A stretch of 64,000 nt of DNA from Pseudobdellovibrionaceae bacterium (GCA_039810425.1 JBDHWW010000017.1:1-64000); one strand, 5' to 3'; positions 1,236 to 25,789 are shown, numbered from the stretch's first letter. The notes: generated by a model not told the origin, from the sequence alone. Numbers and translations: made by a program.

Positions 1236-2285
1236 ATGAAAAAGACCAAGCGAAAATCAAGAATGGAAATGACTCATGTGGATTGGCTGACCGTGTATGG
1301 TGTGGGAAGCGGAAAACGAGGGGCAGAACTTCTAAAAATTCTCAGAGATAAAATCGGAGTAAAACCAAATGAAAAGACCTACGCAGGTTTTGGAGGTGGT
1401 TGGTTCTTTGAGCAGTTCATTGACCGAGGGTTTAGGCTTTCAACGAATGATGAGGGGTCGGCAAAAGTTGAGCTTCAAGGGCTATTCTGGACGGGAGCCG
1501 TGGCAAATCCCTTTGACGAGTTTTTGGATATAGCAGGAAAGATCCGAACGATTGAAGGCATGAAGTGGAAGCTAACGAGAGTGGATATTGCCACCGATAT
1601 TTTTGGCCTACCCTTGGCGGAGGCTTTTCCCAACCCAAAATCCAAGCGGTATGAGTGAGGCTTTGCGTTCAATTATCACGAACACCAAACGAAGACCCGA
1701 AGCGGTGAGATGCTATTCACAGGCTACACGATACACCGCCAACGGTGGAGCCTAACGGTCTATGATAAACGAGTGGAAATCACGGACGGAAACCCTCACC
1801 CGATTAAGCAATCTTATTTTGAGACACTGGCAGAAAAGGACGAACCGATTACCCGTGTTGAATTGCGGGTCAAGAGTGCTGAGGCTCTGGTCGCCGTTCA
1901 GGGAGCCTTACAGACCGTCTGTAAGGAATCTGCCTTCTGTGAGGCCATTCTCAAGCATTGGGGCGATTATCACCGTATAAAGACCAAGGGAGGCCAAGAC
2001 GAGGCCCGTTTCCGTGGTCTGTTCCGTGAGTTTGAACCCACGACCTTTGAACGTCCCAAGAAGGAAAAACTGAACCGTCTTTTTGACGATTTTAAGGAAG
2101 TGAAAATCAGGGACATGATTCGGGATTTTATCAGATACGGCATCAATGAAAACCAGACCGTCGAAGACCTCACCCGTATTTTTCAAGAACAAATAGAATG
2201 GCTCAAAGAAACGGGGGAAATTGTTGAGGCTCAAAACCAGCCCCAAGGACAGAAACCCGAGGGCGACCGTAAGGGAAGCCCGTAG
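1236..2285 (+). pseudogene. Rolling-circle replication initiator (Rep_trans-like) interrupted by one in-frame TGA
   Basis: ORFs 1236-1658 and 1710-2285 are in one frame; TGA at 1656-1658 replaces TGG (Trp) of the intact paralog 8185-9234; both span 1050 nt. Confidence 0.85.
1907..1925. repeat. Element palindrome variant CTTACAGAC-C-GTCTGTAAG inside rep
   Basis: Read directly; one extra central base relative to the 18-mer. Confidence 0.85.
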
Positions 2286-2347
2286 GGTTTATGGCCTGTG
2301 GTCGCACTGTTCTATCAGGTGCGAGAGCCGTAGGCTCGGGGGGCCAT
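2253..2347. other. Conserved hairpin cluster at the end of rep; candidate double-strand origin or nick site
   Basis: TCGCACTG-TTCTAT-CAGGTGCGA followed by GAGCC-GTA-GGCTC; equivalent at 9203-9294 with compensatory changes. Confidence 0.5.
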
Positions 2348-2445
2348 TTTAATTATCTTTTTTTTCGTCGATGCCCTTTCCATTTATTTTTTAAGAACCC
2401 ACGAGGTCGTGAGTTCAAAAACAATAAATGCCGAAGGAGGCCGTT

Positions 2446-2736
2446 ATGAAAATGTTTATGTTAGTTGAGGTGATTCTCTCTAAAAAATCAGTGAATCCAG
2501 AGACAGGTAAAGTCGTTTACCAATCCTTTTTTAACAACGCTAAAAAAGTGATGGGTGAAGATGGGAAAGAGGGATTTTTGCCAGACACAGGCAAGGTGAA
2601 ATTCGACCAACCGCTTGCGAAAGGTTGGCACCTGTTGATGGTGAAGATTTCCACCTATCAAGGTCAGGTTTTTTATACGGGTCTAAAAGAAATTAAAGAC
2701 CCAAAAATCATTCAAGCATTGAACGAGGGGGAATAA
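2446..2736 (+). CDS. 96-aa protein downstream of rep; putative ssDNA-binding (OB-fold-like) protein
   Basis: AAGGAGG RBS; nearly identical to 9382-9672. Size, beta-strand-like pattern and position after an RCR rep fit gene-V/HelP-like proteins (inference). Confidence 0.6.
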   Translation: MKMFMLVEVILSKKSVNPETGKVVYQSFFNNAKKVMGEDGKEGFLPDTGKVKFDQPLAKGWHLLMVKISTYQGQVFYTGLKEIKDPKIIQALNEGE

Positions 2737-3138
2737 ATGAAACGTCTTCGCCCAATGTTCAAAAAGTTGGAAGGGATTTTCTTAAAGAAAATCCCAGCCG
2801 ATGAAATCCAAGAAATCAGATACATGACCGAGTATCAGGTGAATTACTACGAGATGGTTGTGATTGAAAGACGGTGGCCTCTTTCAGTGAGAGAGGCCCT
2901 TGATTGTGTTGATTTTGTTGTTCTTCACGAGAGAGACCCCCGTTGTTATGAGTATTGGCCCCGTATGGCCGAGCTGTGTAAGCAAGCAATGGACTATCTC
3001 AAAGCCAATACTGGAATATGGGAAGATCCGATTTACGGTCAGGGATATTATGAAAGAGAAAAAGTAAAACCCCGCTATGAATTCAAACGTCAAATCCTTC
3101 GAGGCCATGCCGAGAGTTTAGGATTCGTGATTGTTTAA
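2737..3138 (+). CDS. Conserved element protein, 133 aa, function unknown
   Basis: Abuts the 96-aa gene (TAA ATG); paralog at 9673-10074. Confidence 0.75.
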   Translation: MKRLRPMFKKLEGIFLKKIPADEIQEIRYMTEYQVNYYEMVVIERRWPLSVREALDCVDFVVLHERDPRCYEYWPRMAELCKQAMDYLKANTGIWEDPIYGQGYYEREKVKPRYEFKRQILRGHAESLGFVIV

Positions 3139-3207
3139 CTTTATCAGCCGAGGTTTAAGCCAGTGGCCCGTTGATTATCTTAGGATACTCACGGGCCTTG
3201 GTTTTTT

Positions 3208-3225
3208 CTTACAGACGTCTGTAAG
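3208..3225. repeat. Element palindrome CTTACAGACGTCTGTAAG
   Basis: Perfect 18-bp palindrome, 2 nt beyond the VOC gene stop. Confidence 0.95.
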
Positions 3226-3227
3226 CT

Positions 3228-3608
3228 CTATTTCATTGAACTGAGGCCAAACATATTTCCCTCAGTGTCTTGGCATAAAGTTATCCAGCCAAATTTCCCG
3301 ATTGAGAATTTTGGTCTAATGACCTTCCCTCCAGCAGGAGCAATACGAGTTTCTTCTACGGAGCAATCTTCTACACTGAAATAGACCAAAGTGCCGCCAA
3401 CTCCAGCCCGAGCGTGGGAGGACTTCACAAGAGCACCACCAGCACCATAAGTCGCCATATCCGTAGGAAATGCCATCATTTGTGTCTCGCCTGTTGGGTC
3501 GCTGATATTTTCAAGCTTTTGTTTTAGAACGGTTTCATAGAATGAAACGGCTCGTCCCATATCATTTACATAAATGTCAAACCACCCAATCGCATTTGTT
3601 TTTGCCAT
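3228..3608 (-). CDS. VOC/glyoxalase-like family protein
   Basis: WFDIYVND...RAVSFY and GGKVIRPK.SIG..G....CQDTEGN.FGL patterns. Confidence 0.9.
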   Translation of the reverse strand: MAKTNAIGWFDIYVNDMGRAVSFYETVLKQKLENISDPTGETQMMAFPTDMATYGAGGALVKSSHARAGVGGTLVYFSVEDCSVEETRIAPAGGKVIRPKFSIGKFGWITLCQDTEGNMFGLSSMK

Positions 3609-3676
3609 AATGGACTCCTCTTTCTTGCTTCAAGAAATTCAGAGTAGCTTATGAGGTGCTTGGAGTATTGTATAAA

Positions 3677-4432
3677 TCAGACATCAAATTTTTTGGCGTA
3701 TTTTGTCGGTGTGTAGCCCATCATGTTGCGGAATGAATGAATAAAATGGGATTGGTCGGCGTAGTAAGCGAGATAGTCCTGTTTGAATGACTGTTGTATT
3801 CTTAGAACTTTGAGAAAGTCATGAGGGGAAAAGCCAGTTGTCTTCTTGAGTGTCCTTTGTAGTTGTCGGGATGACATCTTTGTAAGTGCCGCCATATCAG
3901 ATACGGCGTGGATATCATCGAGGTTTGTAAGAATTTGAGCAGTTATGGGATTGGGTACCACTAATTTTTTGGTGATTAAGTTTTCTATGAGTTTTGATAA
4001 GACAACTTGTTTGGAGACAAATGTATCCAAGTTAGAAAGCTCGCTATTCGTTTGAATGAGGGGTAATTTTCCAGAGTAGGATTTATCTACTAAACCTTTG
4101 ATGATTTCGTCGGGGTTTCCTCGCCATACTCCAGGGAGCAGTTGAATCCCCACATAGTGAAATACTTTGCCCAGATTGAGTTCTTTGGCCGTTGTGTTTA
4201 AGGCTGTGATTGCCGCTACCATTGGGTCAAGTTGATTGAACAAGATATTGACGCAAGCATCAGGCAGAACATGATAGCGAAAATCATCAGAGAGTGGAGT
4301 TTTAGTTTTAAGTTCCCAGAAGCAATGAACCAAATCGTGTAAATGGCTTGGTGGTTTTGTTTCTGTGTATGATACAGAGCGAGCCGATTTTTCTATACCG
4401 TCTTTGACTGGGTTGTATGTTATCTTTTTCAT
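3677..4432 (-). CDS. AraC-family transcriptional regulator
   Basis: N-terminal VLPDAC; C-terminal SSRQLQR...TGFSP and YADQSHFIHSFRNMMGYTP HTH motifs. Confidence 0.9.
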   Translation of the reverse strand: MKKITYNPVKDGIEKSARSVSYTETKPPSHLHDLVHCFWELKTKTPLSDDFRYHVLPDACVNILFNQLDPMVAAITALNTTAKELNLGKVFHYVGIQLLPGVWRGNPDEIIKGLVDKSYSGKLPLIQTNSELSNLDTFVSKQVVLSKLIENLITKKLVVPNPITAQILTNLDDIHAVSDMAALTKMSSRQLQRTLKKTTGFSPHDFLKVLRIQQSFKQDYLAYYADQSHFIHSFRNMMGYTPTKYAKKFDV

Positions 4433-4449
4433 AAAACGGTCGGCCTTCC

Positions 4450-4467
4450 CTTATAGACGTCTGTAAG
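4450..4467. repeat. Element palindrome (1 mismatch) CTTATAGACGTCTGTAAG
   Basis: Lies between the HEPN stop (4471) and the AraC start (4432). Confidence 0.9.
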
Positions 4468-4470
4468 GAT

Positions 4471-4881
4471 TTAGGCTGATGTGTGGGTCTTGGCCCAATT
4501 CGCAATGTTCTGGGCCACTTTCAAAGAGGCTTCAATTTCTTCTTTGGTGAGAGGAGTGTCCCCCTCGTGGTAACGACGGACCGAAGCGAAGGGATTTAAT
4601 TCCATAAGTCCAAAACCCTCGGCAGGCATTTTTTCGTCTGGCAAGAGGGCAACCAGAACACCCAAGTCGTGAAGTAGTGGGAACGCAATTTCAAGGTGAA
4701 CCAGCACAGACTTGATGTATTTCTCAACGGCCTGTTGAGCGAGAAAAACAATGTTTTCAGGTCGTCCGCCATCACTGACTTTGGAAAGCGTTTTCGCAGA
4801 GGCCAAATCACCATCCGCAATTCTTAAAAGTTCTTTGGCGTATTTTTTTTGAAAAAGTTGTTTTTTTAGATTTCTCGTCAT
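4471..4881 (-). CDS. HEPN domain protein (PF05168-type), partner of MNT
   Basis: FLAQQAVEKYIKS..., HDLGVL and RRY motifs; ATGA overlap with the MNT stop. Confidence 0.85.
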   Translation of the reverse strand: MTRNLKKQLFQKKYAKELLRIADGDLASAKTLSKVSDGGRPENIVFLAQQAVEKYIKSVLVHLEIAFPLLHDLGVLVALLPDEKMPAEGFGLMELNPFASVRRYHEGDTPLTKEEIEASLKVAQNIANWAKTHTSA

Positions 4882-5228
4882 CGCAATTTCATTCCATTGT
4901 GAAAAGCGACGAAGCAAACGCCGCCAAAGTTTTTCCGTTCGTCAAAGGACTCTTTAGTTTTGAAAATCCAATCAATGGCAATATCGGTAAAGCGACGAGT
5001 GTAAACTTCTTTTTGAAGTTGTTTGATAGAGGCTTGGTCTTTGACGACGACAACAAAATCCAAGTCCGAGTCAGCCGTAAAGTTTCCGTAAACAGCGGAG
5101 CCAAAAAGATAGGCTTCCAAAATCAAATCTTGAGAAGGAATGGAGTTCAAAACCTCAACGGCTTTTTGTTGAGCCCATTTATTCATTTCTGGGTCGTGGA
5201 TCATTTTTAATAAACCCATTTTGGCCAC
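4878..5228 (-). CDS. Minimal nucleotidyltransferase (MNT), putative antitoxin
   Basis: YLFGSAVYGNFTADSDLDFVVV (GS-x10-DxD motif). Confidence 0.9.
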   Translation of the reverse strand: MAKMGLLKMIHDPEMNKWAQQKAVEVLNSIPSQDLILEAYLFGSAVYGNFTADSDLDFVVVVKDQASIKQLQKEVYTRRFTDIAIDWIFKTKESFDERKNFGGVCFVAFHNGMKLR

Positions 5229-5237
5229 CTCTCTTTT

Positions 5238-5255
5238 CTTACAGACGTCTGTAAG
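5238..5255. repeat. Element palindrome (extends to a 26-bp perfect palindrome, 5234-5259)
   Basis: TTTTCTTACAGACGTCTGTAAGAAAA between the tRNA fragment and the MNT start. Confidence 0.95.
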
Positions 5256-5262
5256 AAAAAAA

Positions 5263-5308
5263 TGGTGACTCCACCAAGAATCGAACTTGGAACCCCGTCC
5301 TTAGAAGG
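5263..5308 (-). pseudogene. 3' half of an element-type tRNA-Arg(TCT); att junction
   Basis: Matches 13665-13710 except at 2 nt in the anticodon stem (GGACG vs GGTAG); homology ends at the core CTTAGAAGG. Confidence 0.9.
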
Positions 5309-5448
5309 TCTCGGGCTTATCCACCGGGACTAATTTCTATTGTGATTTCGAGGGGTTGTCAAATGGCGACGGAGCCCAGACGTAGGGCGGTAATAAGATT
5401 TTGAATTATGACTTTGAGCTAATTTCCGAATGGTGAGAGTTGGCGGGA

Positions 5449-6549
5449 ATGACCAAACTCTCGCAGTTGGATAGAATGGTGGGGATGTCTTGTACGATTA
5501 GAGTCACCGCACATGAGGAAATGGAAATCACCCTGAACCGTTGGGCTCAGGTTTTGGATGTTCTTGATAAAGAACGAAAACTGGCTGGCGAACGCCGCCA
5601 CTTGAAGGGCTACCAAGTCCGACAAAAAGAATTGCTCAAAGCAGAAATGAAAAACGCCCGGGGTGGTGAATCCGAGGCAATTAAATCTGTCCGCAAAAAA
5701 CTCTACACTCCACTCGATTACTTCGTCGTTTACCTGAATGAAAAATGGGACATGGCTTTTGAGACGTATCAAGTTTTGGAATTTATATTTCGGGCCTCGC
5801 TAGAAAGCCACGAGCGGGACTTGTTTGACTACGGCCAAAAACGCTACGCCTCTGCGTTGAAGACTGTAAAAGGAACGGCCAAGCAAAAATATGAACAGAT
5901 TTTATTTTTGACTCAGAAATTTTCACAGGAAAGTTTCTTTGGTCTCGATGACCTTTTCCCGACGAAAACAGAGTATGTGAACGACTTGAACAAAGAACTG
6001 CGGGGACATATTGCCCGCATTCAGACGCTCCAACAGCAGTTGGAAAAAGAAGAAGACAAAAATTCTCCGCTCCATGCCGTCGTCCAAGAGTTAAGGAAAA
6101 CCGCACGGGGTTTGGAGTCTTGGGCTTTCGGTCGTGTCTTGGGGCAAGAGCAAAACAGAGGCTTTCTTTCGTTTCGTGATGGTCAGATTGTGATGGACCA
6201 TAAGAACTTTCTTTATTTTAAAATTTATATTCTGGTTTTCATGGGAACGTATGGGGAATTCGCTCATCGAGTTTTTCCCGACAGAAATAATTTAGTCTGC
6301 CAACTGGCGGAGAAAAAATTGAAGTTTGAATCAGGACGGCATTTCGACGACTTCATCACGCCTCGTTTTTTGAGCGGTCGTGAACGGTTTGCCGACCAAG
6401 ATAGAGATGTCGAAAATATCCCGCAGGAGCGTGGATTTTTAGACGATGAGCTTTTGACTTATATTGTTGAGCAAAACAGCGAGCTTTTAATGAAAGGTGA
6501 ACTTCCATTTCACCTTGTAAAACGAATTAAAGGCAAACGACCGGCTTAA
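5449..6549 (+). CDS. Hypothetical protein, ~366 aa, helical/coiled-coil rich
   Basis: Long ORF; no family recognised. Confidence 0.7.
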   Translation: MTKLSQLDRMVGMSCTIRVTAHEEMEITLNRWAQVLDVLDKERKLAGERRHLKGYQVRQKELLKAEMKNARGGESEAIKSVRKKLYTPLDYFVVYLNEKWDMAFETYQVLEFIFRASLESHERDLFDYGQKRYASALKTVKGTAKQKYEQILFLTQKFSQESFFGLDDLFPTKTEYVNDLNKELRGHIARIQTLQQQLEKEEDKNSPLHAVVQELRKTARGLESWAFGRVLGQEQNRGFLSFRDGQIVMDHKNFLYFKIYILVFMGTYGEFAHRVFPDRNNLVCQLAEKKLKFESGRHFDDFITPRFLSGRERFADQDRDVENIPQERGFLDDELLTYIVEQNSELLMKGELPFHLVKRIKGKRPA

Positions 6550-6725
6550 GAAGCCCTTCCGATTTTCTCACTTCTTTAAATAATTCATTTACTTACAGAC
6601 CGCCTGCGAGAGTTGGCGAGTCATGTCTAATTCTCACCGATTTTAAGTTCCTCCCGTCGGCTCCTTTATTCTGGGGGAGATTTAACAGCACGACGAGCAA
6701 CATAACAACCCCCATAGGAGGAACC

Positions 6726-7409
6726 ATGGGTAAACAAGTAAAGGCTAGCGGGTCCTTAAAACCCGCACAGGCAAAAGTGGCCCTGTCCAAAACCACTTAT
6801 CACCCTCTTATCAATCAAGCGGTGTTGAAAGCTGTTTCCAAAACAGTCACCGCCATTGATAAGGTTTTGATTGGGGAAAGAAAATTGTCCGTCAATCTTG
6901 GCAGTCTGCTTGCCAAATTGAAAGGCGAGTTCTCAACTCACTTGAAAAAAACCGGCAAATCTCCAAGTGATTTTCAAGTCAAAACCGCATTCCATAATTT
7001 TGTCCAAATTAGGTTCAAGATTGGAGAGAGCCGGACCAATGAGTATATGAAATTGGCGGAGCGGGAGGACTTACACCGCTTGGGCCTGCCAACCTCGGTG
7101 CTCATTGAGCTTGCCCGCCTTGAACCGGACGCTCTTAAAGAGTTCAAGAAAAAGCACCCCACGGCGGAACTTAAAAAGTTATCGTTCAAAACGGTGCGGA
7201 AACTTATCCGTGGTGACAATGAAAACAAACGGAATAAGACCATCAAGAGTGAGGACCGAAAAGAAACCCCACAGTTGATTGCGGAAAAGCTGAAATCCAC
7301 TTTTGAAATTGTTCGGGACAAGTTTGAGGACGAACCGGAGATTGATAAAGAGATTTATTCCGTGATTGGTGAAATGTCCAAATGGCTCATTGATAAAAAG
7401 GCGGCTTAA
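6726..7409 (+). CDS. Basic DNA-binding protein, DUF3102-like HTH
   Basis: AGGAGG RBS; LGSLLAKLK...FHNFVQIRFKIGESRTNEYMKLA resembles the DUF3102 pattern (by eye). Confidence 0.55.
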   Translation: MGKQVKASGSLKPAQAKVALSKTTYHPLINQAVLKAVSKTVTAIDKVLIGERKLSVNLGSLLAKLKGEFSTHLKKTGKSPSDFQVKTAFHNFVQIRFKIGESRTNEYMKLAEREDLHRLGLPTSVLIELARLEPDALKEFKKKHPTAELKKLSFKTVRKLIRGDNENKRNKTIKSEDRKETPQLIAEKLKSTFEIVRDKFEDEPEIDKEIYSVIGEMSKWLIDKKAA

Positions 7410-7421
7410 CTGCTCCTTTGG

Positions 7422-7456
7422 AACCCCCTGAGTATTCCTCAGGGGGTTTATTTTTT
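7422..7456. terminator. Intrinsic terminator between convergent genes
   Basis: AACCCCCTGAG-TATTC-CTCAGGGGGTT followed by a T-rich tract. Confidence 0.75.
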
Positions 7457-7457
7457 C

Positions 7458-7718
7458 TTAGGACGCTTTGAAAACATCATCGTCGTCAGCATCCACATTC
7501 CGATAAATGTTAATCACTTTTTCGGCGTTGTCTTCGTAGTTAGAATACGACGCTGATTTTCCGTTTTTGGAAAAACGGATTTCTGATTTTTTCGCCACAG
7601 TGATTTTATAGAGAAAATACTGAGTTAAAAAAATCTTTAAAACACCAACGACCGAGACCAAGATGGCTGAGTGCCAGATAACCGTCGATAAGTTTTCAAC
7701 GACAAATTTATAGTCCAT
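7458..7718 (-). CDS. Small single-TM membrane protein, 86 aa
   Basis: GGAGGT RBS; paralog of 392-652. Confidence 0.75.
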   Translation of the reverse strand: MDYKFVVENLSTVIWHSAILVSVVGVLKIFLTQYFLYKITVAKKSEIRFSKNGKSASYSNYEDNAEKVINIYRNVDADDDDVFKAS

Positions 7719-7747
7719 ACCTACCTCCAAAAAAAGGGCGGGAGCCC

Positions 7748-7942
7748 TTATGCCCCCCGCTGTTGATACTTACGAGTGATAACGGCATCCAAGAATTTCT
7801 TAGAAAACATCATCACGGTTTTTTGATTCAGGAAAACCATGACGGTATTTCCTTTTTTCGAGAGACGAACTTTCATCGGTTCGATGATTGTCAGTGCGTC
7901 TTTGAATTGACCCTCTTGTGGTTGAGTCGCCTTTTTCTTCAT
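7748..7942 (-). CDS. Small basic hypothetical protein, 64 aa
   Basis: Start at MKKKATQ with GGAGG RBS; paralog of 798-992. Confidence 0.75.
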   Translation of the reverse strand: MKKKATQPQEGQFKDALTIIEPMKVRLSKKGNTVMVFLNQKTVMMFSKKFLDAVITRKYQQRGA

Positions 7943-8184
7943 AAAAACCTCCCTAGGTTTCGTTGTTGAGCCACTACGTTCACAAGTCCCTTGTGTAGTG
8001 GCGATATACAAACGCCCCATGATTCAGGAAAATAAAAAATCAAATGAACTCAGGCGGACAAAACCATGCCGAGTAATCTTGGCCATGAGTTTTCGTAGAG
8101 CCGTAAGAACGACGCTTTTCAGGAAGGCTGGGGGCATTTGAGGAGGTTTTTTAGAAAAAATGAGCTCAATTCCATTTAAGTTGG

Positions 8185-9234
8185 ATGGAAAAGAAAAAGA
8201 CAAAATCAAGAATGGAGATGACTCACGTTGATTGGATTACCGTCTATGGAATGGGAAGCGAAAAACGTGGTGCTGAACTTCTAAAAATTCTGCGGGATAA
8301 AATCGGAGTAAAGCCAAACGAAAAGACCTACGCTGGCTTTGGAGGTGGTTGGTTTTTTGAACAATTCATTGACCGAGGATTTAGGCTTTCAACGAATGAC
8401 GAAGGCTCTGCCAAAGTTGAACTCCAAGGACTTTACTGGACGGGGGCTGTGGCAAATCCCTTTGAAGAGTTTTTGAAAACGGTGGGAAAGATTAGAACGA
8501 TTGAGCACATGAATTGGAAGCTCACTCGTGTGGACGTGGCGACTGATATCTTTGGATTCGGTTTAGCCGAAGCATTTCCAAATCCAAAATCCAAGCGGTA
8601 TAAATGGGGCTTTGCCTTTAACTATCACGAACACCAAACCAAGACCCGAACAGGTGAATTGCTTTTCACAGGGTTCACTATTCAAAAGCAAAGGTGGAGC
8701 CTTACCGTTTACGACAAACGGGTTGAAATCACTGAGGGGAACCCGCACCCGATTAAGCAGTCTTATTTTGAAACGTTGGCTGAAAAAGATGAACCGATTA
8801 CGAGGGTGGAGCTAAGGGTCAAGAGTGCGGAAGCCCTTGTCGCCGTTCAGGGAGCCCTTACAGGCGTCTGTAAGGAGTCAGAGTTCTGCGGGGCCATCCT
8901 TAAACAGTGGGGCGATTACCACCGTATAAAGACAAAGGGCGACCATGACGAGGCCCGTTTTCTACGACTATTCAGGAAGATAGAATCCACGACCTTTGAA
9001 CGGGTCAAAAAAGAAAAGATCGAGCGTCTTTATGATGATTTTAAGGAAATAAAAATCAGGGACATGGCCCGTGATTTTATCAGATACGGCATTCACGAAA
9101 ATCAAACCGCCGACGATGTGGCTCGTATTTTCCAAGAGCAAATGGATTGGCTCAAAGAAAATGGGGAATTGACCAAGGCAAATGAACCGCCCCCGAGCCA
9201 GAAGCCGAAGGGCGACCGTTCAGGGAGTCCATAG
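8185..9234 (+). CDS. Rolling-circle replication initiator/relaxase, Rep_trans (pT181/MOBT-like) superfamily
   Basis: Motifs LTRVDVATD, SLTVYDKRVE (putative catalytic Tyr) and ITRVELRVK. Confidence 0.8.
   Translation: MEKKKTKSRMEMTHVDWITVYGMGSEKRGAELLKILRDKIGVKPNEKTYAGFGGGWFFEQFIDRGFRLSTNDEGSAKVELQGLYWTGAVANPFEEFLKTVGKIRTIEHMNWKLTRVDVATDIFGFGLAEAFPNPKSKRYKWGFAFNYHEHQTKTRTGELLFTGFTIQKQRWSLTVYDKRVEITEGNPHPIKQSYFETLAEKDEPITRVELRVKSAEALVAVQGALTGVCKESEFCGAILKQWGDYHRIKTKGDHDEARFLRLFRKIESTTFERVKKEKIERLYDDFKEIKIRDMARDFIRYGIHENQTADDVARIFQEQMDWLKENGELTKANEPPPSQKPKGDRSGSP
8857..8874. repeat. Element palindrome variant CTTACAGGCGTCTGTAAG inside rep
   Basis: 1 mismatch; same position in rep as 1907-1925. 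Confidence 0.85.
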
Positions 9235-9294
9235 GCTGATGGCGACGGTCGCACCTGTTCTATCAGGTGCGAGTGCCGAAGGCACTTGGGCATC
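9203..9294. other. Conserved hairpin cluster at the end of rep; candidate double-strand origin
   Basis: Perfect stem TCGCACCTG-TTCTAT-CAGGTGCGA (9249-9272) plus AGTGCC-GAA-GGCACT. Confidence 0.5.
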
Positions 9295-9381
9295 TTTTTT
9301 TAGAGAAACCTCCATTCCATTTACTTTTTTAAGAACCCACATGATGTGAGTTCAAAAAAATAAAATGCCAAGGAGGCAGTT

Positions 9382-9672
9382 ATGAAAATGTTCATGTTAG
9401 TTGAGGTGATTCTCTCTAAAAAATCAGTGAATCCAGAAACAGGTAAAGTTGTTTACCAGTCCTTTTTTAACAACGCTAAAAAAGTGTTGGGTGAAGATGG
9501 GAAAGAGGGATTTTTGCCAGATACGGGCAAGGTAAAATTCGACCAACCGCTCGCAAAAGGTTGGCACTTACTGATGGTGAAGATTTCCACCTATCAGGGG
9601 CAAGTGTTCTACACGGGTTTAAAAGAAATCAAAGACCCAAAAATCATTCAAGCATTGAGCGAGGGGGAATAA
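9382..9672 (+). CDS. 96-aa putative ssDNA-binding protein
   Basis: Paralog of 2446-2736; AAGGAGG RBS. Confidence 0.6.
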   Translation: MKMFMLVEVILSKKSVNPETGKVVYQSFFNNAKKVLGEDGKEGFLPDTGKVKFDQPLAKGWHLLMVKISTYQGQVFYTGLKEIKDPKIIQALSEGE

Positions 9673-10074
9673 ATGAAACGCTTACGCCCAATGTTCAAAA
9701 AGTTGGAAGGGATTTTCTTAAAGGAAATTCCTGTCGATGACGTTCACGAAATCAAATATATGACCGAGTATCAGGTGAACTATTATGAGTCCGTCGTGAT
9801 TCACCGACGTTGGCCCCTCTCAGTCAGGGAAGCCCTTGATTGTGTGGACTTCGTGATTCTGCACGAGCGAGACCCACGCTGTTATGAATACTGGCACCGC
9901 ATGGCAGCCATATTCAAAGGTGCGATGGATTACTTGAAAGCTAATACTGGAATTTGGGAGGACCCGATTTTTGGTCAAGGAATGTATGAGATGAAAGAAA
10001 TAAAACCCCGCTATGAATTCAAGCAGCGAGTCCTGCGAGGCCATGCCGAGCGATTAGGATTTGTAGTCGTTTAA
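9673..10074 (+). CDS. Conserved element protein, 133 aa
   Basis: Paralog of 2737-3138. Confidence 0.75.
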   Translation: MKRLRPMFKKLEGIFLKEIPVDDVHEIKYMTEYQVNYYESVVIHRRWPLSVREALDCVDFVILHERDPRCYEYWHRMAAIFKGAMDYLKANTGIWEDPIFGQGMYEMKEIKPRYEFKQRVLRGHAERLGFVVV

Positions 10075-10148
10075 CTTTATCAGCCGAGGTTTGAAGCCAA
10101 TAGCCCGTTGACTATCTTATGATATTCACGGGCTTTGGTGTTTAGAAC

Positions 10149-10403
10149 TTAGTCTGTCCCAACCCTCACAGGAATATCGAGAGCTTTACAGATATAGAAA
10201 AGGACCGGCAAGCTTGGATACCGTTGCTGCTGTTCGATAAATTGAATTGTCATTACCGCCAAATCCAGACTTTCAGCCAGTTGCTCCTGAGTCAGCCCCA
10301 TCTCTTTTCTTCGGGACTGAATGACGACCGAGATATTTTTTAACTGAGCTTCCACGGCTTTTCTGTACTTTGGTGGAACTTTTTCTAATCTTGTTCCCAC
10401 CAA
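10149..10403 (-). CDS. XRE-family HTH regulator
   Basis: RRKEMGLTQEQLAESLDL....IQFIEQ..RYPSL. Confidence 0.9.
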   Translation of the reverse strand: MVGTRLEKVPPKYRKAVEAQLKNISVVIQSRRKEMGLTQEQLAESLDLAVMTIQFIEQQQRYPSLPVLFYICKALDIPVRVGTD

Positions 10404-10419
10404 GACATTATCGAAATTC

Positions 10420-10450
10420 CTTACTTATAGTAACACCTACTCTAAGTAAG
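10420..10450. promoter_or_regulatory. Inverted-repeat operator candidate between the divergent XRE and peptidase genes
   Basis: CTTACTTATAGT-N7-ACTCTAAGTAAG (11 of 12 complementary). Confidence 0.5.
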
Positions 10451-10515
10451 CATTTAGGTCTGGTCATGGATGTATTTAATTGCTGTGGCTAGATTTTTAT
10501 AAGAACATCTATAGT

Positions 10516-12429
10516 ATGGCATATAGAAAAATTATCATTTTATCGACTCTGATTTTATTTGCTCCATTATCGGGAAATTCACAAGGTAAGTCGTGTCTCG
10601 CTTGCGGATTCAATATGTCGACCGAATCGGCGAAAGCGGGACAAGCCAATCCTTGTGATGATTTGTTCGGGGCTTCTTGTGTAGGGACCGATGGTAAATC
10701 CAAGTATAGCGGGGCGTCTAAGAACCTGACCGCTGAATTGTCCAAGCCCATTAGAAAAGCTCGCAATAAGACTGTCCAGGCGATGGGATACAAGGACATT
10801 GACGATGCTGTGAAAGCAAAGTTGAAAGAAGCAGGAATTATTGTAAAGGAACCGCCTGACCAGGATACTTGGAAAAATCTTATCGGTGAAGGCGATGGGT
10901 CTTGGACAAGTGGTGTTGGTTCTAAGCTTTATGCATCCGCAGACCAGTGCGACAAAGATGTTAAAGAGCTTCAAGTAATACAATATTACAGTATGACTGA
11001 CGCATCGGCTTTGAACGAGGTGGCTACAAAATATGAGTCCTTCATTTCCAGATACCGAGAACAGTCAGTAAAATTTTACGCCAAAGATATTCCTAACTTC
11101 GTTAGTAATCATATTGGTCAAAAATGCAGTCAGCTAAAATCAAACTCATCAAATTATAAGCCGGAAGAAAATCAAGAAATCGTAAAAGCTTGCGAAAATT
11201 CAGGGGTTTTGAAAAGAAAAGGAGTTGAGCTTTTTAGGGCTGAGGGAACGGCAGATTATGAGAGATTGGCTGAGCAGTTTGTAAGGGAGAACCTCCTCCC
11301 AGAATTGAAATATAGCTACCAAACGTCGTCTTCGCCAACAACGCCACCCCCTGAAAAGTCAGATGCGGACAAAGCCAGAGAGCGAATCCAGAGATTAAGC
11401 AGTTCCGTCAGCAATTATTGCGATAACTATTCGTCAACGATTGAAAATGCGGGTAAAAAAGTTGTTGAGGATTTTATGAAGACCGTTTCAAAATCCAAAA
11501 CGACGGTGGATGCCGTAATTGATTCTGTTTACAGCGAGGAAAAAGAAAAGCTCGCAAACGAAATATTCCAAACCGCTCGCTCCGATATTCAGGACCTTAC
11601 TAAGTCCTTTGTTAAAGACCCGAAAAAAAGAGGCGAAATTCTTGATGGCTATGATGGCCTGAAACTTTTTTGGATGAAAAAGCCGGACGACACGGCTTAC
11701 ATAAAAGATAAAAATGGAACACTTGTTCTAGATGAAAGCAAAGCTGTGGTGAATCCAGCAGACCAAACGAGTTCGATATTTTTTGACCCGAATCTATCTT
11801 TTTTCAAGACGATGAACGCATTCTATACCCCGTCTGCTTCATACGGGAAAATGAAGACCGATGAGCAAGTGAATATGATGCCTGCTTTTGTATCGATGCT
11901 GGATAAAAACCCTTATGCCTATATGGCGGTTGTCGCTCATGAAGCCGGTCATAAAATCGGTCCGATGGTCAGCAATATCAATGGATACGATTTATCATCT
12001 GAATATAGGGAGTTGCTGGCCTGTTACAAGGACAATAGGTCCATCAAGTTGGAGGATAATCAAGGAGACGAAACGATGTCTGATTATTTTTCCTCGGAGG
12101 TATTAGCTCGCCAAATTCAAAAGCTTCCTGAGGAGAAGAGGAAACAAGCGGTGATGTCTGCAATGCAGGGATACTGCATGTTTGATGAGTCACAAGAACA
12201 TTCTTTTTCTTGCAAGGGAAATCATCCAGAAAACTCTCTGCGGGTAAGTGGTATCTTTGGGTCAAATCCCAGTATTCGAAAAATTTTGGGATGCTCCAAG
12301 GACTCCCCAAAATTCAGAACTTGTGGTTTGAAGACGTCAATTCTTGATTTGGCAGAAGAATCAAAGACCACCGTCGGAACTTCTAGCGACCGAGCAAACG
12401 ATACGAAAGCGACACGAGGTGTTCGATGA
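10516..12429 (+). CDS. Secreted zinc metallopeptidase, M13 (neprilysin)-like C-terminal domain
   Basis: Signal peptide; NAFY, AHEAGH (HExxH), DETMSD and HPENSLRV motifs in M13 order. Confidence 0.7.
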   Translation: MAYRKIIILSTLILFAPLSGNSQGKSCLACGFNMSTESAKAGQANPCDDLFGASCVGTDGKSKYSGASKNLTAELSKPIRKARNKTVQAMGYKDIDDAVKAKLKEAGIIVKEPPDQDTWKNLIGEGDGSWTSGVGSKLYASADQCDKDVKELQVIQYYSMTDASALNEVATKYESFISRYREQSVKFYAKDIPNFVSNHIGQKCSQLKSNSSNYKPEENQEIVKACENSGVLKRKGVELFRAEGTADYERLAEQFVRENLLPELKYSYQTSSSPTTPPPEKSDADKARERIQRLSSSVSNYCDNYSSTIENAGKKVVEDFMKTVSKSKTTVDAVIDSVYSEEKEKLANEIFQTARSDIQDLTKSFVKDPKKRGEILDGYDGLKLFWMKKPDDTAYIKDKNGTLVLDESKAVVNPADQTSSIFFDPNLSFFKTMNAFYTPSASYGKMKTDEQVNMMPAFVSMLDKNPYAYMAVVAHEAGHKIGPMVSNINGYDLSSEYRELLACYKDNRSIKLEDNQGDETMSDYFSSEVLARQIQKLPEEKRKQAVMSAMQGYCMFDESQEHSFSCKGNHPENSLRVSGIFGSNPSIRKILGCSKDSPKFRTCGLKTSILDLAEESKTTVGTSSDRANDTKATRGVR

Positions 12430-12833
12430 GAATGGCAATATTCTTTGCAGTCATAATATGTTCCTTCGGAGCTTTTGCTAAAACCAAGCAGACAGCTATT
12501 TTAGAGGTGAGTTTTGAAAGAGCAAAAAAATCTCATGTATATAAGATCGTGAAATCTGCTTCTAAGAAATCCGAATACAACTTGTTATTTACTGATGAAA
12601 AAAGAAAAACGAAATCTCACAGACTATCGCAAAGGCAAGCAGAGCAGATAAAGAACGAGGCAACCAGAATCATCTGGGAAAATCAGTATAGAAAACCAGC
12701 CTCAACCGATAGTTGTCGTGAATATATGACCATTAAAACTGACTTAGAAAAATCAAAAATCTGCTATGAGAATAGAGCTTCTGTTGGCAGGGCTTTCGGT
12801 TTTATTAATTCATTGGACAAGACTATAAATTGA
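12426..12833 (+). CDS. Secreted hypothetical protein, 135 aa
   Basis: Signal peptide ending AFA; ATGA overlap with the peptidase gene. Confidence 0.7.
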   Translation: MRMAIFFAVIICSFGAFAKTKQTAILEVSFERAKKSHVYKIVKSASKKSEYNLLFTDEKRKTKSHRLSQRQAEQIKNEATRIIWENQYRKPASTDSCREYMTIKTDLEKSKICYENRASVGRAFGFINSLDKTIN

Positions 12834-12847
12834 AATTTGGAAAATCC

Positions 12848-12865
12848 CTTACAGACGTCTGTAAG
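12848..12865. repeat. Element palindrome (26-bp perfect, 12844-12869)
   Basis: ATCCCTTACAGACGTCTGTAAGGGAT just beyond the HEPN stop. Confidence 0.95.
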
Positions 12866-12874
12866 GGATAGCGA

Positions 12875-13285
12875 TTATTCTCGGGTATTGGCCTTAGCCC
12901 AATCAGCAACTTTTTGAGCGGTAGATAAAGAGGTTTCAATCTCCTCGGTCGTCAGAGGGATTTGACCTTCTTCGTAGCGACGAACCGTCGCAAAAGGATT
13001 CAACTCAGTCAATCCAAAGCCCTCTGGAGGCATCTTGTCGTCAGGCAAGAGAGCCACCAAAATTCCCAAATCATGAACGACGGGAAAGCCAATCTGCAAG
13101 TGAACAAGCACGGCCTTGATGTATTTCTCGACAGACTGTTGAGCCAAAAAAATAATGTTCTCGGGTCGGCCAGACTTCGCTTTGGAAAGGGCTACCGCAG
13201 AATCTAAATCTCCCGCTGCAATTTTCAAAAGCTCTTTGGAATATTCTTTTTTGTAGAGACGTTTTTTTAGATTCGGAGGTGTCAT
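12875..13285 (-). CDS. HEPN domain protein
   Basis: FLAQQSVEKYIKA, HDLGIL, RRY; paralog of 4471-4881. Confidence 0.85.
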   Translation of the reverse strand: MTPPNLKKRLYKKEYSKELLKIAAGDLDSAVALSKAKSGRPENIIFLAQQSVEKYIKAVLVHLQIGFPVVHDLGILVALLPDDKMPPEGFGLTELNPFATVRRYEEGQIPLTTEEIETSLSTAQKVADWAKANTRE

Positions 13286-13629
13286 CGCAGTTTCTTCCCG
13301 TGATGAAAGGCATCAAAGCATGCACCGCCAAAATCTTTTCGCTCATCAAAAGATTTTTTAGTTTTGAAAATCCAGTCAATCGCAATATCGGCAAAGCGAG
13401 GGGCGTAAACTTCTTTTTGCAGTTGTTTAACGGATGCTTCATCTTTCACAACGATGACAAAATCCAAATCAGAGTCATCAGTGAAAACGCCTTCCACTGC
13501 GGAACCAAAAAGATAAGCTTCTAAAATTAAATCTTGTGAAGGAATGGCGTTCAGAACTTCCACGGCTTTTTGTTGAGCCCACTGGTTCATTGCTGGATTT
13601 GGAATCATTTTTAGCAAGCCCACTGTCAT
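13282..13629 (-). CDS. Minimal nucleotidyltransferase (MNT)
   Basis: YLFGSAVEGVFTDDSDLDFVIV. Confidence 0.9.
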   Translation of the reverse strand: MTVGLLKMIPNPAMNQWAQQKAVEVLNAIPSQDLILEAYLFGSAVEGVFTDDSDLDFVIVVKDEASVKQLQKEVYAPRFADIAIDWIFKTKKSFDERKDFGGACFDAFHHGKKLR

Positions 13630-13639
13630 CCCTTCTTCC

Positions 13640-13657
13640 CTTACAGACGTCTGTAAG
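13640..13657. repeat. Element palindrome (26-bp perfect, 13636-13661)
   Basis: TTCCCTTACAGACGTCTGTAAGGGAA, 3 nt beyond the tRNA CCA end. Confidence 0.95.
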
Positions 13658-13664
13658 GGAAAAC

Positions 13665-13741
13665 TGGTGACTCCACCAAGAATCGAACTTGGAACCCCTA
13701 CCTTAGAAGGGTAGTGCTCTATCCAATTGAGCTATGGAGCC
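13665..13741 (-). tRNA. tRNA-Arg(TCT), complete, element-borne
   Basis: GGCTCCA-TA-GCTC(AATTGGATA)GAGC-A-CTACC(CTTCTAA)GGTAG-GGGTT-CCAAG(TTCGATT)CTTGG-TGGAGTC-A-CCA folds into a full cloverleaf. Confidence 0.97.
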
Positions 13742-13841: not shown

Positions 13842-15056
13842 TTAATCTCCGAGGTCTGCCAATTCCGTAGAAAACTGCCTGTCGTCTTGGTCATATTTCA
13901 TCGTCATCTGATGCGTCGTGTGACCAGCCGCCCGTTGAACGTCTTTCCAGTGGTGCTTGCGGTGGGCGTCAGTGATGAACGTCCGTCTGAAATCGTGGGA
14001 AGAGTGCCCGAATTTTCCAAGGATTTTGTTTACCCGTTTATTAAGGGTGCTTGGGTGTAATGGGACAATTTTTTGAATCAGCTCCCAAGCCTCTTTTGCG
14101 TCCATATTCCAATAAGGAACTTTGCGGACATTGGTTTTCACTTTGCGGGTGAGGATTTTTCCGTCTTTCACTCCGGCCCCTTGCTCGTCCACCAAAAGAC
14201 TTTCTTTCAACAGTTTCAATCGGGAAAAACCGAGCGATTCGTTTATCCGCAGGCCAAAGGCGTAGCAAAGCTTGATGTTCGGGAGCAGACTTGCGTCTTC
14301 TTCCTCCACCGCTTTTAGTATTTTTTTGTAAGTGGCATCAGGGACATATTTCGATTCGTCGCCTTCGCCCTTTTTCTTTTTGAGGTAATTGATTTCACTG
14401 AACTTGGCTCGACCGATGGGCTCCAATTTTCGAGGAGCCGGCATTTCGGGATAGACTTTTTGGGTGAGAAATCTGAGGAAACGATTCGTCGTGGAAACAA
14501 TTCTTTTCAAAAGAGCGACAGATAAATCTTGGTCCAAAAGCCACTCGCCCCAGTCATCTTCTCTGAGGTGCCACTTGCTCGGGTCAGCTAAATCATTTTT
14601 GATAATGAAAAACTCAAAGACATATTTTTGCAGAATGGTTACGGGATAGCTTGCCGAACCCTTTGTGGTGGTTTGTTTTTTGAGATGTTTCTCAAAAGCA
14701 GAGAGTGATGTGATGTTGATAAACGCATGGTGGAAGTTGTAGCGTTCTTCGGCCAGTTTTTTCTCAGTGGCAAATGAGGCATTAAGACGTCGGAGAAGAC
14801 CACCGAGTTCCGTCTCGTTCATGTCTTTGTAATGTTTGGCGGGATAACGGTTCCACGTTATTTTGCCGTTCACTTTGCGATAACGCTTGATGCAGTTTCG
14901 CTCAATACCGCTTCTGTTTTTCTCACGGACGAGATACCACTTTGACCACTCAGTGGTCGTCTCTTGAATGTTGGTTGCGAGTTTCAATTCTCCCACCTTT
15001 TCATTGTGTAGCCACGGCGGAAAAACGGTGAGACCAGTTGGATATTCACTATCCAA
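13842..15056 (-). CDS. Tyrosine recombinase/integrase
   Basis: Catalytic set GLRINE (R), HDFRRT (HxxR), AGH and KYD (Y); lies next to the att core. Confidence 0.9.
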   Translation of the reverse strand: MDSEYPTGLTVFPPWLHNEKVGELKLATNIQETTTEWSKWYLVREKNRSGIERNCIKRYRKVNGKITWNRYPAKHYKDMNETELGGLLRRLNASFATEKKLAEERYNFHHAFINITSLSAFEKHLKKQTTTKGSASYPVTILQKYVFEFFIIKNDLADPSKWHLREDDWGEWLLDQDLSVALLKRIVSTTNRFLRFLTQKVYPEMPAPRKLEPIGRAKFSEINYLKKKKGEGDESKYVPDATYKKILKAVEEEDASLLPNIKLCYAFGLRINESLGFSRLKLLKESLLVDEQGAGVKDGKILTRKVKTNVRKVPYWNMDAKEAWELIQKIVPLHPSTLNKRVNKILGKFGHSSHDFRRTFITDAHRKHHWKDVQRAAGHTTHQMTMKYDQDDRQFSTELADLGD

Positions 15057-15142: not shown

Positions 15143-15182
15143 CTTAGAAGGCAATTGCTCTATCCAGCTGAGCTACAGCACC
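15143..15182 (-). pseudogene. 5' half of a different tRNA-Arg(TCT), presumed original host gene, truncated at the anticodon loop (att junction)
   Basis: GGTGCTG-TA-GCTC(AGCTGGATA)GAGC-A-ATTGC-CTTCTAA-G, then non-tRNA sequence; the expected GCAAT and T-arm are absent. Confidence 0.88.
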
Positions 15183-18674: not shown

Positions 18675-20035
18675 AATGCGTCCTCATCAATGCTGTAGTC
18701 TTTGATTTTTTTATAGAGGTTTGAACGTGAAACTTTGAAGACCTTCGAAGCCTCTTCGACATCTTTGTGTGCTTTCAAGCAGGCGCGGATAAGATTGGCT
18801 TCAAATTCTTCAACCAGGAGGTTCAACCCTTTAGAGAAGTCGATGTCTTTAAAGGCGGGGTTGAGGTATCCCGTTTTGGTTTTCGCCGCGCTTGGGTTCA
18901 ACAGATTCTCGACGTCTTCTTCACGGATAAATGGCAATGGCGAAACCAGGCTGATCTGCTCACACACGCGCTTGAGTTCGCGCACGTTGCCCGGCCAGTT
19001 GTAATTTTCAAGCGCTTTCAAGCCGTCAGCAGTGAATTGCTTGTTGCGCTTCGGGCGCTCCATATCAAGGAAGTTTCTGGCAAGTTCCGCGATATCTTCT
19101 TTGCGCTCTCTTAGGGGCGGTAGCTCAATACGCTGGCTTGAAAGGCGGAAGTAAAGGTCTTCGCGGAATTTACCTTCAGCCACCAATTTTTTGAGCGGCT
19201 GATTGCTTGCAACGATCACGCGGGCTTGCACGTGAGTCACGTCTTTGGCGCCAACTTTGCGTACTTCGCCGGACTCTAGGAAGCGAAGCAGCTTCACTTG
19301 TTGATTCAGCGGCAGCGCTTCGATCTCATCCAGAAACAGATCACCACCGTGAGCGGCTTCCGCAAGACCGACTTTGTTTTGATCCGCGCCGGTGAAAGCG
19401 CCTTTCACGTGACCGAAGACCTCTGATTCAAAAAGATTTTCTGGAATACTTGAAATATTGACGGCGATGAACGGACGCTCGTCTTCTTGCTGATTGAGCA
19501 GCCGGGCCGCGACTTCTTTGCCGCAACCGGTTTCGCCTTCAATCAAAATTGTGTTGGTTTCGCCTTTAAGGCCGGCGATGCGCTTTCTAATTTTTTGCGC
19601 CTCGGCGCTGACGCCAACCCACACGATGTTCTTACCTGCGGTATCGAGATTGCGGATGCTCCAGTAAGCTTCGATTTTATCCAGCACTAGCTTGACCTCC
19701 TCAGTAAGAAGAGGCTTTGCAAGGAACCTCTGCGCGCCCGCTTTCAGGCATTGCTCCATGGTCTCGCGGTTGAGGTCTCCGGACATCGCCACGATTTCGA
19801 GCTGGGCATTGTGCTTCATCAGCTTTTCGATGACTTGAATACCTTCAGGTTTGTTGCTTCCCGGGGTCAGATGCATGTCGACCATGGCCGCGTGGAAGAA
19901 GTTTGTGTACGGAACGAGTTCTTTTTTCGACACGGAAGTAATCTTCCACGGCACGGGAACGCACAGTTTCAGAGCCTGGTGAATTAAGGAATCATCATCA
20001 ACGACCAATAGATGAAATACTCTAGTGCTTTTCAT
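18671..20035 (-). CDS. Sigma-54-dependent response regulator (NtrC family)
   Basis: Receiver domain, GETGCGKE, GAFTGA, WPGNVREL, C-terminal HTH. Confidence 0.95.
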   Translation of the reverse strand: MKSTRVFHLLVVDDDSLIHQALKLCVPVPWKITSVSKKELVPYTNFFHAAMVDMHLTPGSNKPEGIQVIEKLMKHNAQLEIVAMSGDLNRETMEQCLKAGAQRFLAKPLLTEEVKLVLDKIEAYWSIRNLDTAGKNIVWVGVSAEAQKIRKRIAGLKGETNTILIEGETGCGKEVAARLLNQQEDERPFIAVNISSIPENLFESEVFGHVKGAFTGADQNKVGLAEAAHGGDLFLDEIEALPLNQQVKLLRFLESGEVRKVGAKDVTHVQARVIVASNQPLKKLVAEGKFREDLYFRLSSQRIELPPLRERKEDIAELARNFLDMERPKRNKQFTADGLKALENYNWPGNVRELKRVCEQISLVSPLPFIREEDVENLLNPSAAKTKTGYLNPAFKDIDFSKGLNLLVEEFEANLIRACLKAHKDVEEASKVFKVSRSNLYKKIKDYSIDEDAL

Positions 20036-20104
20036 TCTGAAAGCATCTCTTTCAAACAGAGATTTGGCTACCTTTTTTGCAAGACGTTATGGTAGGACCC
20101 TCGT

Positions 20105-21106: not shown

Positions 21107-21149
21107 AACCCCGGAAATCGAGTAGACTTTTTAGCTAGGAGTCTACTCT

Positions 21150-22361: not shown

Positions 22362-22468
22362 TTTTCGACATATTTGGTGTTTCTCACGAGTTATTCATGC
22401 AACCTTCAAAAAGCACTTTTAACATGGTGTCAGAATCCAACTGTGAGATTTGATTGGGAGGTTTCACC

Positions 22469-23736: not shown

Positions 23737-23794
23737 TCAAGGTTTTTCCGTCCTTTGCGAGCCTGCGGGCTTCTTTAAAAAGCGAGACGACCGT

Positions 23795-25243: not shown

Positions 25244-25451
25244 AAGGATTGATTCGGGGAGCTCTTTTTTCTTCGCGCAGGGTGCGAATTTTCAGAGTCG
25301 CGTAGAGCGGGCAGAAGCCCCAGGCAGCGGCGAAGATAAAATACACGCCGCCGAACGCCCAAATAGGACCGCCCGCAATGGCGTAGGTGAAAAGCACCAC
25401 ACCAATAAAAAAGCGGATAATGCGGTCCCAAAGGGCGACATTACATCTCAT
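25227..25451 (-). CDS. DUF2892/YgaP-like small membrane protein
   Basis: NV..WDRIIR...GFCPLY pattern. Confidence 0.8.
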   Translation of the reverse strand: MRCNVALWDRIIRFFIGVVLFTYAIAGGPIWAFGGVYFIFAAAWGFCPLYATLKIRTLREEKRAPRINPFEEQS

Positions 25452-25759: not shown

Positions 25760-25789
25760 TGAGGTTCCTCCGAGCTTTCAGCTCACTGA

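Follow-up and report, generated by a model that had tools for sequence, protein, structure and literature searches.

A repeated element-specific palindrome and its putative ParB-like reader in an integrative element of a Pseudobdellovibrionaceae bacterium

What is the role of a short palindrome that is repeated along a mobile element and missing from the host backbone around it? The question is raised by a stretch of 64,000 nucleotides from a Pseudobdellovibrionaceae bacterium (GCA_039810425.1, JBDHWW010000017.1:1-64000; this whole stretch is called the window). It holds an integrative element of two tandem units joined at the second of two TTCTAAG heptamers (5300-5306), each unit with an MNT-HEPN gene pair, variable cargo and a Rep_trans-like initiator gene (rep). 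An 18-bp palindrome occurs exactly at 3208, 5238, 12848 and 13640 and with one mismatch at 4450 and 8857. These six copies compare with 0.01 expected, and six were reached in none of 100 shuffles. In the rest of the 3.54-Mb genome there is no other 18-bp match with up to two mismatches and one with three. The 18-mer is the most repeated of the 89 perfect palindromes of at least 16 bp. Three copies extend to perfect 26-bp palindromes, which start at 5234, 12844 and 13636. Adding two 19-bp forms (1907 and 6592) gives eight sites in the window (Table 1), and the core pattern can be written as TTACAGRC-N(0-2)-GYCTGTAA. Two other contigs of the same genome also hold sites: C99 has one further 17-bp core, beside serine-recombinase genes and what remains of a tRNA 3' end, and a second element on C28 has three variant sites (labels beginning with C, G or L are our own). 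The palindrome is real and element-specific. An earlier reading of the sequence alone, the original prediction, had reported the four exact copies, the three 26-bp extensions, the absence from the host region and the position of copies within about 10 nt of stop codons or tRNA ends, and all of this was found again; the gaps are 2, 3 and 9 nt to the stops of VOC, HEPN1 and HEPN2 and 7 nt to both tRNA CCA ends. Of the copies it called near-exact, those at 4450 and 8857 are so, while that at 1907 differs by an added central base rather than by a substitution. Its half-site at 6592 turns out to be a degenerate full 19-bp site, which is retained in the relative G317.

Which molecule could read this site? 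Two answers had been offered, a recombination or capture site folding on single strands like integron attC, and a parS/KorB-like site bound by a helix-turn-helix (HTH) protein of the element. Our analysis favours a form of the second, with binding still putative: co-occurrence across unrelated elements and the predicted fold and dimer both point to it. We put the probability that the protein encoded at 6726-7409 is the reader of the site at about 0.75, and that reader and sites together act as a multi-site transcriptional repressor or roadblock at about 0.55. The reader role is proposed because the site co-occurs with the gene family of this HTH protein across elements that differ in integrase, replicon and cargo. 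Among the relatives, single-unit elements (G317 and G048) keep the site by the tRNA and within rep; in G362 the sites, all of the longer form, occupy the four positions seen in unit 1; and G343 and L023, with another integrase at tRNA-Leu and no MNT-HEPN match, have kept sites as well. When genomes were searched with the 227-aa protein, distant elements came to light whose homologues are 20-35% identical. Their recombinases are of the serine type or are other tyrosine integrases, their initiators differ too, and usually there is an adjoining methylase gene; these elements also bear TTACAGRC-N(0-2)-GYCTGTAA. Of 21 loci, 17 have a site, allowing up to two mismatches, no more than 5 kb from the HTH gene, where 0.25 loci would be expected from the background of the bacterium's own genome (5 sites in 3.50 Mb). 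The 21 loci include the window and three found through the palindrome; 14 of the 17 loci found through the protein are positive. For eight held-out loci, 5 were positive against 0.10 expected, of which one nearly duplicates a locus of the first set and two are closely related to another one, leaving about two independent cases. The three misses are a gene fragment, the most distant homologue, and a locus (L246) with a variant palindrome of its own.

Could another gene of the element explain the co-occurrence equally well? The site-bearing elements have tyrosine integrases unmatched to that of the window by tblastn, or serine recombinases; their initiators are of the Rep_trans or other types, and MNT-HEPN is variable. 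When 24 window proteins were searched by tblastn, only the HTH protein was matched near sites in the distant loci. The family of p369, the gene upstream of the HTH gene in the window, was not found in L023, G343, G057, G102, G089, C28, G003 and G049. Only one window gene, that of the HTH protein, was found in every intact element that bears the site.

The predicted structure of the protein weakly supports a ParB/KorB-type DNA-binding domain without a CTP clamp. The model of 227 residues is all-helical (mean predicted local distance difference test, pLDDT, 75), with a low-confidence N-terminus (1-23), a core at 30-163, a low-confidence linker and a C-terminal hairpin. The core aligns with the ParB DNA-binding domain 6s6h (Z 6.2 over 103 aa, root-mean-square deviation 3.3), Spo0J 1vz0 (Z 5.6, 102 aa, 3.5) and KorB 1r71 (Z 4.9, 105 aa, 3.8). 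These are the longest of the alignments listed. The ParB-like match begins at residue 30, which leaves no room for a CTPase domain, and the ParA-binding motif LG-R/K-GL is absent from the window protein. A homodimer is predicted with a score of 0.82 against 0.00 for the best control, with contact agreement of at least 83% between runs and pLDDT of at least 81; 20 of 30 solved homodimers and 1 of 23 single chains reach the mark. The predicted dimer surfaces are the N-terminal helices and the C-terminal hairpin, and the interface includes helices beside the HTH. The family is small, with 62 clusters at 50% identity among 1.84 billion representatives. The label "DUF3102-like", which the prediction had attached to the gene, is a weak lead only. 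The protein at 6726-7409 has no Pfam match; at the curated cut-off DUF3102 (PF11300) is not assigned to it, and one of 17 family members matches at E 0.049. The viral Foldseek matches include one ParB-like and three DUF3102 proteins (all E>0.04), the three DUF3102 models being among ranks 10-15 (E 0.35-0.55), and the third Atlas match (0.95) has DUF3102 on 13% of its members. Compared with DUF3102, the HTH family appears small and separate. A PDB sequence search with the HTH profile gave nothing useful, and the DUF3102 papers listed do not treat its function, as far as titles and abstract openings show.

How would such a protein use the site? Among 53 sites with distinct flanks, the spacer is 0, 1 or 2 bp in 28, 22 and 3 cases, and the forms are often mixed within one element. 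Half-site positions 1-6 are near-invariant (97-105 of 106 half-sites, figures that the mismatch cut-off inflates), with A or G at position 7; this conservation of sequence fits readout of bases. As judged by eye, G-T and A-C pairs at position 7 were too few to show a strand bias. Within an element, half-sites differ by 0.80 mismatches against 1.90 when shuffled (41 sites, 15 elements) and spacers agree more often (0.59 against 0.42, p=0.034), which could come from a cognate reader or from copying among sites. The variants are repeated in the same manner: C28 has three TTACGGGC-type copies, G014:C75 has two TTACAGGT-type copies, and L246, which has no standard site, has its own repeated palindrome of CCGCAGRC type with outer bases changed on both arms, one copy being inside the HTH gene. 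For placement, 44 sites of 17 representative loci were used, with near-identical elements dropped, five looser variants included and a crude caller of open reading frames (ORFs). Sixteen sites lie within 25 nt of a stop codon, where 2.6 are expected; 18 are inside ORFs (34.3 expected) and 26 outside (about 10 expected). A site is found upstream of the HTH gene or in its 5' part in 10 of 21 loci. From these observations we propose that a dimer would dock on the double-stranded palindrome, each subunit reading one TTACAGRC half-site, and that bound dimers would act as repressors or roadblocks damping transcription across the integrated element. Dimers just past the tRNA would limit read-through from the strong tRNA promoter into MNT-HEPN; those at convergent operon ends and inside replication genes would limit read-through and rep expression; and those upstream of or inside the reader gene would limit the synthesis of the reader itself. 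Binding and repression by the dimer are inferred.

The sites inside rep deserve separate attention. One site is present in every intact rep examined at the DNA level (6/6), and the longest invariant run across the six genes is the site itself (12 nt). Of 39 Rep homologues, 32 fit one of two reading frames of the site, 25 with the L-Q-T-V-C type and 7 with the L-T-G/D type; the other seven are 46-62% identical. Several Rep substitutions (T to A, V to A) coincide with R/Y positions of the site. Judged from these alignments, it is the DNA rather than the protein that is conserved here, and the Rep sequence bends to keep the site.

The proposed system would act most like KorB-OB with a stoperator layout, and it belongs to neither. 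KorB-OB of the IncP plasmid RK2 has a DNA-binding domain of the ParB family, a 16-bp palindromic operator near and far from promoters, and silencing of replication genes on a mobile element (PMC11790492). KorB has an N-terminal CTPase clamp and cooperates with KorA, whereas here about 30 residues precede the region resembling a DNA-binding domain, so that no clamp sliding would be possible; moreover the OB site is different, and here the spacer is 0-2 bp. ParB-parS and Noc-NBS share a predicted HTH region, a flexible linker, a C-terminal helical region and a palindrome of 8+8 bp (domain layout after 10.1101/2025.10.10.680097). They differ in that no CTPase fold, ParA-binding motif or parA was found here, and in that sites are spread over elements of 7-20 kb with a leaning to gene ends. 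A palindrome of about 16 bp with several copies per replicon is common to ParB-parS, KorB-OB and this system. The stoperators of Cluster A mycobacteriophages resemble it in their many repressor sites across an integrated element, in short intergenic spaces, with a proposed halt of elongation. They are 13 bp long, asymmetric, polar and read by a monomer (PMC9283540), while here the site is symmetric and putatively read by a dimer, and the element is no recognisable phage.

Several points weigh against this reading. The chief difficulty is that one protein would have to accept two or three spacings: spacers of 0-2 bp coexist, an interface beside the HTH would fix the geometry, and a hairpin stem would be indifferent to the spacer. 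Long-range repression by KorB requires the CTP clamp (PMC11790492), which is lacking here. The Z scores against ParB, Spo0J and KorB are no higher than those of unrelated helical matches, and Foldseek gives no match to the model at E<=0.001 and E>1 for the ParB-type fold. Most sites overlap no predicted promoter, and G048, G362, G343 and L023 have no site ahead of the HTH gene. Seven loci have no site within 5 kb of it (G045, G164, G008, L240, L246, L247 and L023, the sites of the last being more than 8 kb off), many sites persist in remnants with no HTH gene in view, and the assembly shows no separate HTH gene for unit 1. The counts are also inflated by kin (G057/G102a, G014:C75/G525, L242/G102b and L241/L244/G534), and the consensus was tuned on the first loci, so it was fixed before the eight new ones were tested.

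Could the same protein and sites do another job? They might bridge or organise the DNA of the element, as a clamp-less centromere of the excised circle or in the pairing of copies, or they might address a partner such as a methyltransferase; we regard this as possible and clearly less likely than repression. It would agree with the ParB-type fold and the two predicted dimer surfaces, with sites in the replication genes of both replicon types, and with an N6/N4 methylase gene that immediately follows the HTH gene in G057, G102 (both), G093, C28, G659 and G014:C75. Yet the window element lacks a methylase and its protein the ParA-binding motif, no ParA family was found among 127 proteins scanned with Pfam (a chosen subset of ORFs, with several contigs ending inside the element), and a bias to stop codons is unexpected for a centromere, though intergenic sites cost least.

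The other reading of the original prediction, that the palindromes are points of recombination or cargo capture, either as attC-like hairpins on the rolling-circle single strand or as hotspots bridged by protein, is unlikely in our view. The likeness to attC is real in part: attC sites are palindromic, often lie just past a stop codon, and have promoterless genes in line downstream of a strong promoter (PMC2727003). Besides the enrichment at stop codons, all intact copies here fold as hairpins (plain stems of 7-11 bp, loops of 3-4 nt), variation in spacer is tolerated, and copies are homogenised within elements. Unit 1 and G362, whose Rep is 68% identical to that of unit 2, differ in cargo between the post-HEPN site and the site at the end of the rep operon, and the backbone homology stops exactly at 3207|3208. 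However, the attC sites of the same source are 57-142 nt long, with R''-L''/L'-R' boxes and poor sequence conservation, while here the core is 16-18 bp, the palindrome is 16-26 bp and at most about 32 bp, the sequence is conserved, and no R/L boxes are found. attC also has extrahelical bases and an unpaired central spacer, in contrast to the plain stems here, and 18 of the 44 sites are intragenic. No IntI was found: the window integrase matches no NCBIfam model at E<=0.01, not even TIGR02249, and three related integrases score 17-22 bits against the cut-off of 265 for integron integrase. The 3207|3208 junction is shared by 5 of 7 aligned elements without a site there, and is also the end of the terminator-like repeat of the operon. 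Both AraC-VOC homologues found (68% identical) are without flush sites, one having a site 500 bp off; none of nine listed joints is on a site (these come from contigs of four runs only, which drop rare forms); and sites occur also in elements where no Rep_trans match was found. The attC-like form thus fails the features of attC that could be tested, and a looser role in cargo exchange keeps a low probability. An equally doubtful variant is that a clamp-less ParB-type dimer pairs two palindromes, which would then be points of cargo exchange, while reader and site diversify together between elements.

Is the site an operator of the MNT antitoxin, in autoregulation of MNT-HEPN? It stands directly before MNT in all nine tRNA-adjacent loci, and Shewanella SO_3165 binds its own promoter region (PMC4621449). 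Nevertheless 23 of 32 MNT loci are not tRNA-adjacent and have no upstream site (5-8 mismatches at best), eight of them being 57-79% identical, and many site-bearing elements are without MNT-HEPN, so this is very improbable. The same low standing is given to an RNA hairpin that would follow the tRNA and HEPN and serve as a terminator or as a stem for processing or stabilisation. On the plus strand, the copy at 3208 is accepted by a simple terminator scan, and flank symmetry extends beyond the core in the tRNA-adjacent and post-HEPN classes (p=0.036, 16 sites). But on both strands the stem has pyrimidine runs before it and purines after it, opposite to the order in an intrinsic terminator, it is sequence rather than pairing that is conserved, copies are intragenic, and there is no Rfam match; some copies may serve as RNA hairpins secondarily. 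The different symmetric flanks had also been taken as a sign of selection on symmetry. Over all 53 sites the symmetry is significant (p=0.003); in the 34 sites outside these orthologous classes it is gone (p=0.27), which leaves that claim weak. Flank symmetry as proof of hairpin selection was rejected on the same ground.

A nick or termination site of Rep, or an arm site of the integrase, is still less probable. Two copies lie 45 bp from a TTCTAAG crossover, in several relatives sites are located close to att or to the integrase gene, and every intact rep examined has its copy; on the other side, sites persist across unrelated integrases, serine recombinases and initiators, and a separate hairpin after rep is the better candidate for a nick origin. 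All six elements compared retain this hairpin, and beside it lies another whose sequence varies. Rep_trans proteins nick a site exposed by a hairpin (PMC5714925). The least probable alternative is a site for a host protein: the central ACGT and 16-bp length resemble those of parS, but there is no copy in the host backbone and no exact degenerate match in 169 of 182 family genomes, several of them single-contig (a reversed control pattern matches 4 of 182), and the host chromosomal-repeat form is already contradicted.

Table 1. Sites and genes of the element in the window.
Feature	Position	Strand	Basis or remark
Unit-1 rep copy, in-frame TGA at 1656-1658	1236..2285	+	
19-bp site, one central base, within unit-1 rep	1907..1925	.	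reads L-Q-T-V-C-K
Exact 18-bp site	3208..3225	.	between rep-operon end and VOC stop (2 nt)
AraC-VOC cargo	3228..4432	-	Pfam
1-mismatch site	4450..4467	.	3 nt past HEPN1 stop, 17 nt ahead of AraC start codon
MNT-HEPN pair, unit 1	4471..5228	-	Pfam
Exact site (26-bp palindrome 5234-5259)	5238..5255	.	7 nt past displaced tRNA 3'-half CCA, before MNT1 ribosome-binding site
Element tRNA 3' half from anticodon-loop heptamer TTCTAAG	5263..5306	-	unit 2/unit 1 junction
p369, function unassigned	5440..6549	+	often directly upstream of HTH gene
Degenerate full 19-bp site	6592..6610	.	43 nt past p369 stop, ~115 nt before HTH gene; retained in G317
227-aa all-helical protein, candidate reader	6726..7409	+	predicted structure
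Rep_trans-like rolling-circle initiator, unit 2	8185..9234	+	Pfam E 6e-4, below cut-off
1-mismatch site within unit-2 rep, other frame	8857..8874	.	reads L-T-G-V-C-K
Hairpin directly past rep, candidate nick origin (inferred)	9249..9272	+	unit-1 copy 2302-2324 one base short
Exact site (26-bp palindrome 12844-12869)	12848..12865	.	between convergent stops of p135 and HEPN2
MNT-HEPN pair, unit 2	12875..13629	-	Pfam
Exact site (26-bp palindrome 13636-13661)	13640..13657	.	7 nt past tRNA-Arg CCA, before MNT2 start
Complete element-borne tRNA-Arg(TCT)	13665..13741	-	near-consensus sigma70 promoter 13783-13755
Tyrosine integrase	13842..15056	-	without integron-integrase match
Host tRNA-Arg(TCT) 5' half, broken at TTCTAAG	15143..15182	-	

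The integrase splits the host tRNA-Arg(TCT) at the anticodon loop, and the element brings a whole new tRNA with its own promoter, which doubles as the junction between units. The 3' half of the host tRNA is on contig C61 (about 14800-14847), past a gene of the p369 family, and apart from the tRNA's own arm no terminator hairpin is predicted after the tRNA. In L081 an intact tRNA-Arg is followed by the site and MNT-HEPN without an integrase, as if the integrase and 5'-half module can leave alone. In unit 1 the in-frame TGA of rep is at the position of a Trp codon in unit 2, and the G048 rep also has an internal stop; unit 1 probably depends on the unit-2 Rep. Bases 1-75 of the window, where unit 1 is cut, recur at the starts of contigs C32, C53, C77 and C90 and mark an unassembled repeat, perhaps an insertion sequence. 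Eleven further loci have a gene of the p369 family, in most cases immediately before the HTH gene, and Pfam, PADLOC, Atlas and Foldseek gave no identification of p369.

Other occurrences of the family and the site were noticed. On G000:C28 (about 19500-34700) there is a second, unrelated integrative element. Its HTH homologue is 34% identical, and it also has a methylase gene and the three variant palindromes. Decayed remnants of the same family, with HTH fragments, are found at G000:C68 (12000-13250) and L013 (9800-11900); L013 has a HicB-like/PIN pair and C68 a near-identical ORF. A second small palindrome of TCTCA-N5-TGAGA type lies about 160-215 bp before distant HTH homologues in L049, L051, L057 and L061. 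Another class of elements splits the host tRNA-Leu and brings a replacement (L014 1795-2097, L023 240-780, L082 10415-10965, L084 4615-5180), with the palindrome and a stretch which we take to be boxA-like just upstream of it. The L084 replacement holds an insert like a group I intron (Rfam RF00028, 35.8 bits, E 2e-7, below the gathering score), and similar inserts are in those of L023 and L082. Scans for the exact 18-mer gave 0 matches in viral contigs, 6 in metagenome contigs and 6 in species genomes. Of the twelve, six lie in G+C-rich DNA where neither an element gene nor an HTH-family match was seen, a number explicable by chance given the size of the collections; in L020, L022, L025 and L027, which are of this kind, TCA/TGA flanks are common to three or four, possibly an unrelated palindromic operator. 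The degenerate pattern matched 64 loci in viral contigs, none with an HTH-family gene, and these were taken as chance; a search of the viral contigs for related loci with HTH and Rep found nothing.

What does the finding mean? A literature search on rolling-circle integrative elements of Bdellovibrio, islands of Bdellovibrionota, LE1 partition and ParB-like proteins without a clamp, with subscription journals and bioRxiv supplements outside its scope, listed no paper on the site or the HTH family. The analysis gives a concrete candidate DNA target for a family of uncharacterised proteins, and suggests that a ParB-type module for DNA binding would work without the CTP clamp that is the basis of current models of ParB and KorB. 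The putative reader-site pair is common to elements with different replicons and recombinases. With the natural specificity variants (C28, G014:C75 and L246) and the apparent tolerance of 0-2 bp in the spacer, it may offer a compact system in which operator and reader change together. If it were true that the sites steer cargo exchange, they would represent a new route of gene capture, and small tRNA-targeting elements of predatory bacteria would gain a capture slot that needs no integron integrase.

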